Virus record (IMG/VR): IMGVR_UViG_2541047932_000014
Location: 1-10,970 of that record
Strand: one strand, 5' to 3'
DNA length: 10,970 nucleotides
Source of the DNA: a virus
Lineage: Duplodnaviria > Heunggongvirae > Uroviricota > Caudoviricetes
Positions 4,566 through 4,754 of the stretch are shown one piece after another. Each line of letters starts with the position of its first letter. Position 1 is the first letter of the stretch. Made by a program: the position numbers and the translations under genes. A model generated the notes under the pieces. It did not search any database. It worked only from the letters and a program-made list of their open reading frames with translations, and was not told the origin of the DNA.

Positions 4566-4610
4566 AAGAATAAAAAAATCCCGCAGAGTTGCGGAACTGC
4601 GGGAGCGTTA
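4566..4610 (-). terminator. Rho-independent terminator oriented for minus-strand transcription
   Basis: Hairpin CCCGCAG..CTGCGGG (about 4580-4603; 7-bp GC-rich stem, extendable by TT/AA pairing around a GCGG loop). On the + strand it is preceded by the A-run aaagaataaaaaaat, so on the minus strand the stem is followed by ATTTTTTTATTCTTT. On the + strand it is followed by agcgttacg, which is not U-rich. Confidence 0.6.
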
Positions 4611-4754
4611 CGAAGATTAAGTGTAAGGAATTATTCTTATGTCACGACAAAAAACATTAACGCAGAGAAATTATTAGCACCACAGTCAGTTTGTGAAAAT
4701 GTGAAGATATTCAGAATTTTTATGCCATTACCGGTTTTAACCAACAGGATTGTC

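Follow-up and report, generated by a model that had tools for sequence, protein, structure and literature searches.

A probably intact, divergent PasB-family small RNA gene antisense to the late operon between tail genes I and J of a lambda-like prophage

The AT-rich segment that follows tail gene I in this prophage very likely contains an intact small RNA (sRNA) gene of the PasB family, at positions 4572-4721 on the minus strand, which we read as a divergent member of a known but unannotated family. The homology of this gene, its position and orientation, the conservation of its promoter and terminator, and its intact state were all computed here, using the window (the whole 10,970-nucleotide stretch of DNA that we analyzed) and its relatives.

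The window covers the tail region of a lambda-like prophage and contains genes H, M, L, K and I, an IS3-family element, J and a Lom/OmpX-like gene. Gene H occupies positions 22-2205, the product of gene L matches TIGR01600, and the tail assembly gene I runs from 3884 to 4564 on the plus strand (Pfam Lambda_tail_I, 60.7 bits); PHROG tail assembly families also match gene I, and its homologs are annotated as tail tip assembly protein I. Further downstream lie the tail tip/host specificity gene J (6164-9637, plus strand; NCBIfam lambda_TipJ, 2358 bits) and the Lom/OmpX-like gene (9705-10304). The stop codon of I is at 4562-4564, where the first-pass annotation of this DNA had placed it, and the sharp fall in G+C content that it described after this codon is evident, with 36.5% G+C in 4566-4754 compared to 57.5% across H to I, 59.3% in I and 56.7% in J. 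This is the lowest-G+C stretch in the window; equally low values occur in 0.5% of 189-bp windows, every one of which overlaps the site. We attribute the low G+C content to the presence of a promoter and a non-coding RNA module.

A BLAST search with positions 4400-4760 recovered 121 phage records, the majority from Stx-converting phages and from further lambdoid phages of E. coli. When the IS3-family element and one copy of its target duplication are removed, the flanks (4565-4751 and 6013-6163) are collinear with the I-J spacers of ASU11 and PPompW, which have no interruption at the insertion point. These alignments show the AT-rich segment to be what normally lies between I and J in a large group of lambdoid prophages of E. 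coli, and the earlier suggestion of a one-off foreign island is not supported. The first-pass annotation had named two findings that would speak against a leftward unit, namely conservation of the segment in many lambdoid phages and a lack of minus-strand transcription. The former is what the 121 phage records show, while the latter is contradicted for homologs of the segment by published northern, RNA-seq, RIL-seq and Hfq-CRAC data. Spacers between I and J fall into length classes of about 232, 333, 418, 709 and 910 bp, and the window belongs to the 333-bp class. As the I-J junction of lambda has only 60 bp, with a plus-strand hairpin as its sole such element, the sRNA module is extra DNA in the moron sense: lambda lacks it at this junction, and it brings a promoter and a terminator of its own, without protein cargo. 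The hairpin in the lambda spacer (lambda 15445-15504; L134 745-805 in our locus set) is followed by a U-run and lies just before J, and E2348/69-type spacers have an analogous plus-strand hairpin at the same place.

The predicted sRNA is 92 nt long and is encoded on the minus strand from G4663 to the end of its U7 tail at 4572, which is 7 nt from the stop codon of I. We placed the start at G4663 from the position of the -10 hexamer. Homology with the 83-nt annotation of the E2348/69 RNA would put the mature 5' end near 4647; relative to the position that corresponds to the published 5' end, the predicted start is some 16-20 nt upstream, and the primary transcript may be trimmed from 4663 toward ~4647. 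The proposal of a leftward, moron-like unit with its 3' end at a hairpin next to I is upheld by a conserved promoter of its own and by a PasB-family match on the minus strand from 4663 to 4572.

The intrinsic terminator of the sRNA (4572-4604, minus strand) consists of an 8-bp stem, in which 4597-4604 pairs with 4579-4586, a 10-nt loop and the U7 tail (4572-4578). Read on the plus strand, it comprises A7 (4572-4578), T4579, CCCGCAG (4580-4586), the 10-nt loop, CTGCGGG (4597-4603) and A4604. On the minus strand the G+C-rich stem is thus followed by U7, whereas the plus strand has no T-run after the hairpin, in agreement with the earlier claim that this element would terminate minus-strand transcripts only. 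A consensus terminator scan alone was not above chance (3 sites versus 1.9 ± 1.8 in shuffled sequences), and it is homology, not the scan, that lifts this terminator above chance. Across alleles the stem is invariant and the loop variable; an unvarying stem, partly imposed by our search pattern, provides no covariation evidence for or against the structure.

Just upstream of the terminator is a conserved single-stranded core, UCCUUACACUUAAUCUUCG (4612-4630, minus strand). The mean majority fraction of the core is 0.88, compared to 0.74 for the 5' body, a difference that is partly circular as part of the core was imposed by the search pattern. In the RNAalifold consensus fold everything except the terminator is unpaired, the core included. 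The core is the probable seed, and a seed just upstream of the terminator has been described as likely for PasB (Zhu, Shabalina and Storz 2026, bioRxiv 10.64898/2026.05.13.724894). The variable 5' body (4631-4655, minus strand), as read from the sequence, contains a U-run (4648-4655) and the A-R-N repeats AAG AAU AAU. These would be Hfq-binding features; A-R-N is given as an Hfq motif by Tree et al. 2014 (PMC4104026). A long-range pairing between 5' and 3' parts (GCGUUA with UAACGC), predicted for the window allele, was set aside since on inspection it is lost in the other allele groups.

A sigma-70-type promoter is predicted at 4670-4697 on the minus strand, with a -35 hexamer TTCACA (4697-4692), a 16-nt spacer and a -10 hexamer AATAAT (4675-4670); the promoter scan gave 10 of 12 matches. 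An xATAAT hexamer is present in each of the 42 unique alleles (TATAAT in 30, CATAAT in 6, AATAAT in 5 and GATAAT in 1), and in every one of them it lies 16 nt from a TTCACA-like hexamer (exactly TTCACA in 31) and exactly 4 nt before CTGCGTTA. The promoter was absent from the search pattern that collected these alleles. Its -35 and -10 regions have majority fractions of 0.93-0.95, versus 0.74 for the 5' body, and the conservation of the promoter is that of the RNA. Judging from its hexamer, the window promoter may be a weaker one, its -10 being AATAAT and not the usual TATAAT.

Conservation extends upstream of the -35 hexamer through a block at 4698-4721 (minus strand; AAAAAUUCUGAAUAUCUUCACAUU in the RNA sense), which also lay outside the search pattern and has a mean majority fraction of 0.93. 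This block (TTCTGAATATCTTCACATTTTCACA) holds TTCACA twice and is conserved as strongly as the promoter. A possible role for it is that of an UP element or a regulator site; the latter may be relevant to the condition-dependent levels of PasB in EPEC. Beyond it, the linker at 4722-4754 is context-specific: alleles diverge there by context (majority fraction 0.70), and its last three positions in the window are GTC (4752-4754), the left-hand copy in an imperfect target duplication of 3 bp.

The alleles used in these comparisons were collected with a degenerate pattern over the core and terminator, which retrieved 119 IMG/VR loci; with other loci this gave 127 places and 34 unique RNA-plus-flank sequences, or 42 when the promoter was included. 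At least five groups can be told apart among them. The E2348/69 type makes up group A, and the position-27 difference that sets PasB-2 apart from PasB corresponds to a C/A difference within this group. Group B comprises the window and phage PhiR5_1, with an identical allele, free of the IS, in O39:NM F8704-2. We built a covariance model (R1) from 19 alleles, excluding group B, to which the window belongs. Model R1 matched the window on the minus strand from 4663 to 4572 over its full length of 97 positions, with 84.7 bits and an E value of about 9e-17, and the next best match in the window scored 9.3 bits. That weak, partial match, to the terminator part of the model, falls on a terminator-like hairpin with U7 at 10412-10441 on the plus strand, downstream of the Lom/OmpX-like gene.

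The window allele is 72% identical to type PasB over 83 nt, and neither BLASTN nor megablast with PasB as query gave a match in the window. The family link therefore rests on the profile, on intermediate alleles and on synteny. On this comparison the window allele is a PasB family member at the family level, not a near-identical variant. The full-length match also bears out an sRNA as the kind of leftward unit, one of the options raised in the first-pass annotation. The published census of PasB lists variants that differ by a few nucleotides and corresponds to our group A; given the 72% identity and the lack of BLASTN and megablast matches, the allele group of the window almost certainly lies outside it. 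The Rfam scan that the first-pass annotation had proposed found no family in 4500-4800 (with Rfam 15, none at the gathering threshold and none up to E = 1), PasB itself having no Rfam model, and a scan of an uninterrupted relative gave only sub-threshold chance matches.

PasB (pathogenicity-associated sRNA B) is one of five prophage sRNAs found by RIL-seq in EPEC O127:H6 E2348/69, where it is encoded by prophage PP6 (Pearl Mizrahi et al. 2021, PMC8550237). Its annotation covers 83 nt on the minus strand of NC_011601.1, from 1466343 to 1466261, and it was detected on EPEC northern blots with the probe AATCCCGCAGTGATCGCGGAGCT (Table S6, PMC8550237). We found that this probe is the plus strand of the hairpin homologous to window positions 4577-4603. 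PasB was more abundant under the non-activating condition, decreased in an hfq mutant (log2 changes of -6.8 and -2.4), and has 37 listed RIL-seq partners (PMC8550237). In E2348/69, where I occupies 1465674-1466255 and gpJ starts at 1466496, the RNA is encoded between the two on the opposite strand, with its end 6 nt from the I stop. The window allele shares with PasB its position after the stop of I and before J, its antisense orientation and its promoter architecture, as well as the terminator stem CCCGCAG/CUGCGGG with U7 and a core of the form UCCUU..AUCUUC; the two differ in the 5' body and in the terminator loop. Expression, size, Hfq dependence and the existence of many RNA partners have been shown by other groups, and for homologs of the window gene only.

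A second set of published data very probably concerns the same family. EcOnc22, EcOnc23 and EcOnc24 are homologous orphan Hfq sites in prophages Sp15, Sp14 and Sp11 of EHEC O157:H7 Sakai (Tree et al. 2014, PMC4104026). On northern blots EcOnc22 measures about 85 nt, and the loss of Hfq destabilizes it; the Hfq-bound intergenic regions reported include ECs2161...ECs2162, ECs2718...ECs2721 and ECs2942...ECs2945 (PMC4104026). We identified ECs_2161 and ECs_2162 as J and I of Sp11, which are 240 bp apart, with the CRAC peaks on the strand opposite the tail genes. In the I-J spacers of Sp15, Sp14 and Sp11, which are 78% identical to the window allele, the PasB-family model scored 79.4 bits in all three, marking PasB-like RNAs at L129 834-927, L130 768-858 and L132 1318-1408, respectively. 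The coordinates of Tree et al. 2014 refer to NC_002695.1 and do not fit NC_002695.2. We calibrated the version shift at one nearby locus, AgvB1 (peak at 1941783-1941835 in version 1; Rfam match at 1941920-1941981 in version 2), which gave +137 to +146. With this shift the EcOnc22-24 peaks fall on the body of the PasB-like RNA, and the shift is consistent with a peak inside the 240-bp spacer and with the location of EcOnc42 in the intergenic region next to stx1B. By way of this coordinate shift, we infer that one family very probably includes both EcOnc22-24 and EPEC PasB. EcOnc22-24 are Hfq-crosslinked orphan sRNAs ~85 nt long, and they resemble the window gene in their location between I and J and in their orientation antisense to the tail genes; their spacers differ in the core, with UCCAU in place of the UCCUU of the window. 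We found no paper that states a link between EcOnc22-24 and PasB, and Table S6 of PMC8550237 lists no EHEC homolog for PasB.

The anti-sRNAs AgvB and AsxR (Tree et al. 2014) offer a parallel: these short, Hfq-dependent RNAs are carried by prophages at a cargo site that is conserved, and they vary in the 5' part while the 3' part is conserved. Unlike the window gene, they are located downstream of Q/PR' (the PR' moron site) and not in the tail region; they are unrelated in sequence, 51-60 nt long, and have Rfam models (RF02702 and RF02703), whereas the window segment has no Rfam match.

The first-pass annotation had supposed that the leftward unit was truncated by the insertion sequence, and this part of its reading did not hold. 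Promoter, body and terminator all lie within 4572-4721, and the element lies outside the conserved upstream block. The IS3-family element (4755-6012, plus strand; 1258 bp) has TG...CA ends, orfA (4827-5138) and orfB (5258-6004), and orfB matches NCBIfam transpos_IS3 (NF033516) with 268.7 bits against a cutoff of 160, with a partial match for orfA. Its boundaries are confirmed by terminal inverted repeats of 26 nt (TGTAGTGG.../...CCACTACA) and by copies in many E. coli plasmids that are 100% identical over exactly 1-1258. It has the two-frame transposase, TG...CA inverted repeats and 3-bp target duplication of the IS3 family. The duplication is imperfect, with GTC at 4752-4754 on the left and ATC at 6013-6015 on the right, compared to ATC in uninterrupted relatives (GGATT-GTC-[IS]-ATC-GGTGG in the window versus GGATT-ATC-GGTGG in ASU11 and PPompW), which points to a point change after insertion or to a variant target. 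This particular insertion was absent from all complete E. coli genomes in our collection. An Rfam match to isrC (RF01387, "Hfq binding RNA"; 4823-4945, plus strand, 150 bits) covers the 5' end of orfA and, being entirely within the IS3-family element, is IS sequence here.

A distance of 58 bp separates the element from the -35 hexamer downstream of it; the conserved upstream block stops about 33 bp short of the element, and the predicted RNA start is ~90 bp away. The linker in which the element lies differs between spacer classes. By these distances the sRNA gene appears intact, adjoined by the element and not cut by it. The insertion moved the upstream hairpin away from its usual place ~50 bp from the promoter block, and could have changed read-through into the sRNA gene. 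That hairpin belongs to the right half of the I-J spacer (6013-6163), which begins with ATC (6013-6015) and contains a 13-bp perfect hairpin at 6031-6060 flanked by A-rich and U-rich runs, an arrangement expected of a bidirectional terminator. The right half also contains a second hairpin (GCAUGA...UCAUGC) and, on the minus strand, a promoter-like site (TTGCCA, 18 nt, TATCCT; 6132-6103). It folds far better than shuffled sequences (z = -7.0) and is nearly invariant in more than 70 loci; the PasB model did not recognize it (5.8 bits on 6013-6163). These predictions make it a candidate for a second leftward RNA that could run from about 6096 to 6022, within 6020-6132 on the minus strand.

Relatives of the window show that the I-J junction is a cargo site, as lambda has 60 bp there and 547 of 5426 complete E. 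coli genomes carry sodC leftward between J and the PasB body. The accessory function anticipated in the first-pass annotation for DNA in this region is accordingly found in relatives. An example is E. coli 2013C-3264 (L004 2766-3620), in which sodC, encoding a Cu,Zn superoxide dismutase, lies leftward at this position. The sodC moron of E. coli O157:H7 and other strains shares with the window the insertion site, the leftward orientation and the PasB body and terminator next to I. It differs in that a gene for a 175-aa Cu,Zn superoxide dismutase, with a hairpin of its own, takes the place of the sRNA promoter, and the window has no sodC. That the promoter was replaced is indicated by the similarity between the window and the sodC variant, which extends only as far as the predicted RNA start. 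The PasB body of the sodC variant is still recognized by the family model (66.8 bits), and PasB might be made from the sodC transcript there.

The long spacers proved to hold PasB-like modules in tandem, repeated about every 225 bp in the arrays of three or four. Each module has a terminator and a body whose 5' part is different, and usually also a promoter. Four modules are present in L103 (7669-8430), L079 (12174-12936), L084 (9515-10279) and L082 (10116-10880), three in L078 (8173-8738), and two in L037, L047 and L011. The modules of the four-module arrays score 97, 54, 18 and 79 bits with the model; in the arrays of three and four modules the bodies have diverged, and one terminator stem differs (CUCCCGU/ACGGGAG). 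By inspection, three of the four modules of L103 keep the xATAAT hexamer. Tandem arrays of this kind are not described in the PasB papers (PMC8550237; bioRxiv 10.64898/2026.05.13.724894), and the published census, being BLAST-based, would have been unable to detect them. We raise, tentatively and as something we do not favor, the idea that the I-J junction is a cassette site of fast-diversifying RNAs, in which case the window would carry two leftward RNA genes, the divergent PasB allele and an unrelated RNA with two hairpins (~6096 to 6022), with the IS between them.

A sensitive BLAST search with 107 nt of the window gave matches at 3520 places, spread over 1420 of the 5426 complete E. coli genomes; among the matches listed, the RNA was unannotated throughout. 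The order I, module, J was present in every IMG/VR locus that we checked with tblastn. A scan of one genome per species across bacteria recovered only E. albertii and one contig labelled Streptomyces; with one genome per species, this says little more than that the locus occurs mainly in Escherichia. The latter contig (L009, 3408 bp, labelled Streptomyces flavalbus) carries an E. coli-type I-J spacer with a PasB-like gene, and is probably assembly contamination.

From these data we propose that a self-contained module lies between I and J. It brings a promoter, a body of about 75-92 nt and an intrinsic terminator, and would be transcribed against the late operon. In a lysogen, with the late operon off, the RNA would be made from the sigma-70 promoter that the module itself carries. 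The layout of the RNA (an unstructured 5' part, a U-run, A-R-N repeats, the core UCCUU...AAUCUUC, and a hairpin followed by U7) is that expected of an Hfq-dependent, trans-acting base-pairing sRNA. The IS3-family element would have inserted in the linker between the sRNA module and the next hairpin, leaving the gene whole. By analogy with its homologs, this allele would be expressed and would have targets, and its exact 5' end and seed are predicted on the same footing.

Other readings of the segment can be weighed against an intact, trans-acting PasB-family sRNA. The RNA might act mainly in cis, as its perfect complementarity to the I-J junction of the late tail transcript could let it, or convergent transcription from its promoter, modulate the expression of J in lytic growth, or let the late transcript sponge the sRNA. 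In favor of this, the gene is always antisense within the late operon, directly after I, and where it lies is conserved more strongly than the 5' body. However, there is no overlap between the RNA and any coding sequence or ribosome-binding site, as it ends 7 nt past the I stop codon and starts about 1.5 kb before J (about 240 bp without the IS), while the 37 trans partners in EPEC RIL-seq (PMC8550237) and the conserved single-stranded core fit trans pairing. We consider a mainly cis-acting RNA unlikely, and such activity would be compatible with a trans role. A lower probability attaches to the segment being an ordinary spacer whose hairpin insulates I from leftward transcription, with an allele that makes no stable functional RNA. 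The hairpin does terminate leftward transcripts only, cargo such as sodC is transcribed toward it in relatives, and the -10 hexamer of the window is a weaker variant. On the other hand, promoter and RNA body are conserved far past the needs of an insulator, homologs yield a discrete Hfq-dependent RNA, and sodC has its own hairpin upstream of the shared one, all of which make a pure insulator improbable.

We regard as very improbable the possibility that the segment holds the 3' remainder of what was once a larger leftward gene or moron, such as a sodC-type cassette, and that the IS severed its 5' part. The leftward sodC between J and the same hairpin, in E. coli 2013C-3264 and in the 547 complete genomes, provides a precedent for such a gene, but without the IS and one duplication copy the spacer is collinear base for base with the uninterrupted spacers of phages that lack a gene there, and tblastn with SodC gave no match in the sampled loci. 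Moreover, the similarity that stops at the RNA start indicates that sodC replaced the promoter in those genomes, not that it was lost here, and a sodC remnant specifically was ruled out by the collinearity of the flanks with uninterrupted spacers. That the segment encodes a small protein is hardly credible, whether this is taken to be the 66-aa open reading frame (ORF) of ASU11 (disrupted by the IS here), a 72-aa minus-strand ORF at 4637-4855 or a 12-aa plus-strand ORF. ASU11 does have an annotated hypothetical protein that extends from the linker into J. Yet the 66-aa and 72-aa ORFs have no Pfam or PHROG match, the former contains the terminator hairpin and overlaps the start of J, the latter runs into the IS and would thus be a chimera, and the short plus-strand ORFs are in different frames in different alleles.

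We therefore return to an intact PasB-family sRNA gene as the reading of this segment. The locus is very common, in EHEC and EPEC among others, and yet has neither annotation nor an Rfam model, with the result that genome scans keep flagging an unexplained AT-rich island. The PasB family is broader than a BLAST-based census suggests, with several allele groups that have different 5' bodies. As EcOnc22-24 very probably belong to this family, two independent expression data sets can be pooled, and the sRNA shares its site with a virulence-associated prophage sodC. The value of these findings lies in the annotation of the locus, in alleles worth testing and in the tandem arrays at this site, rather than in a new mechanism.
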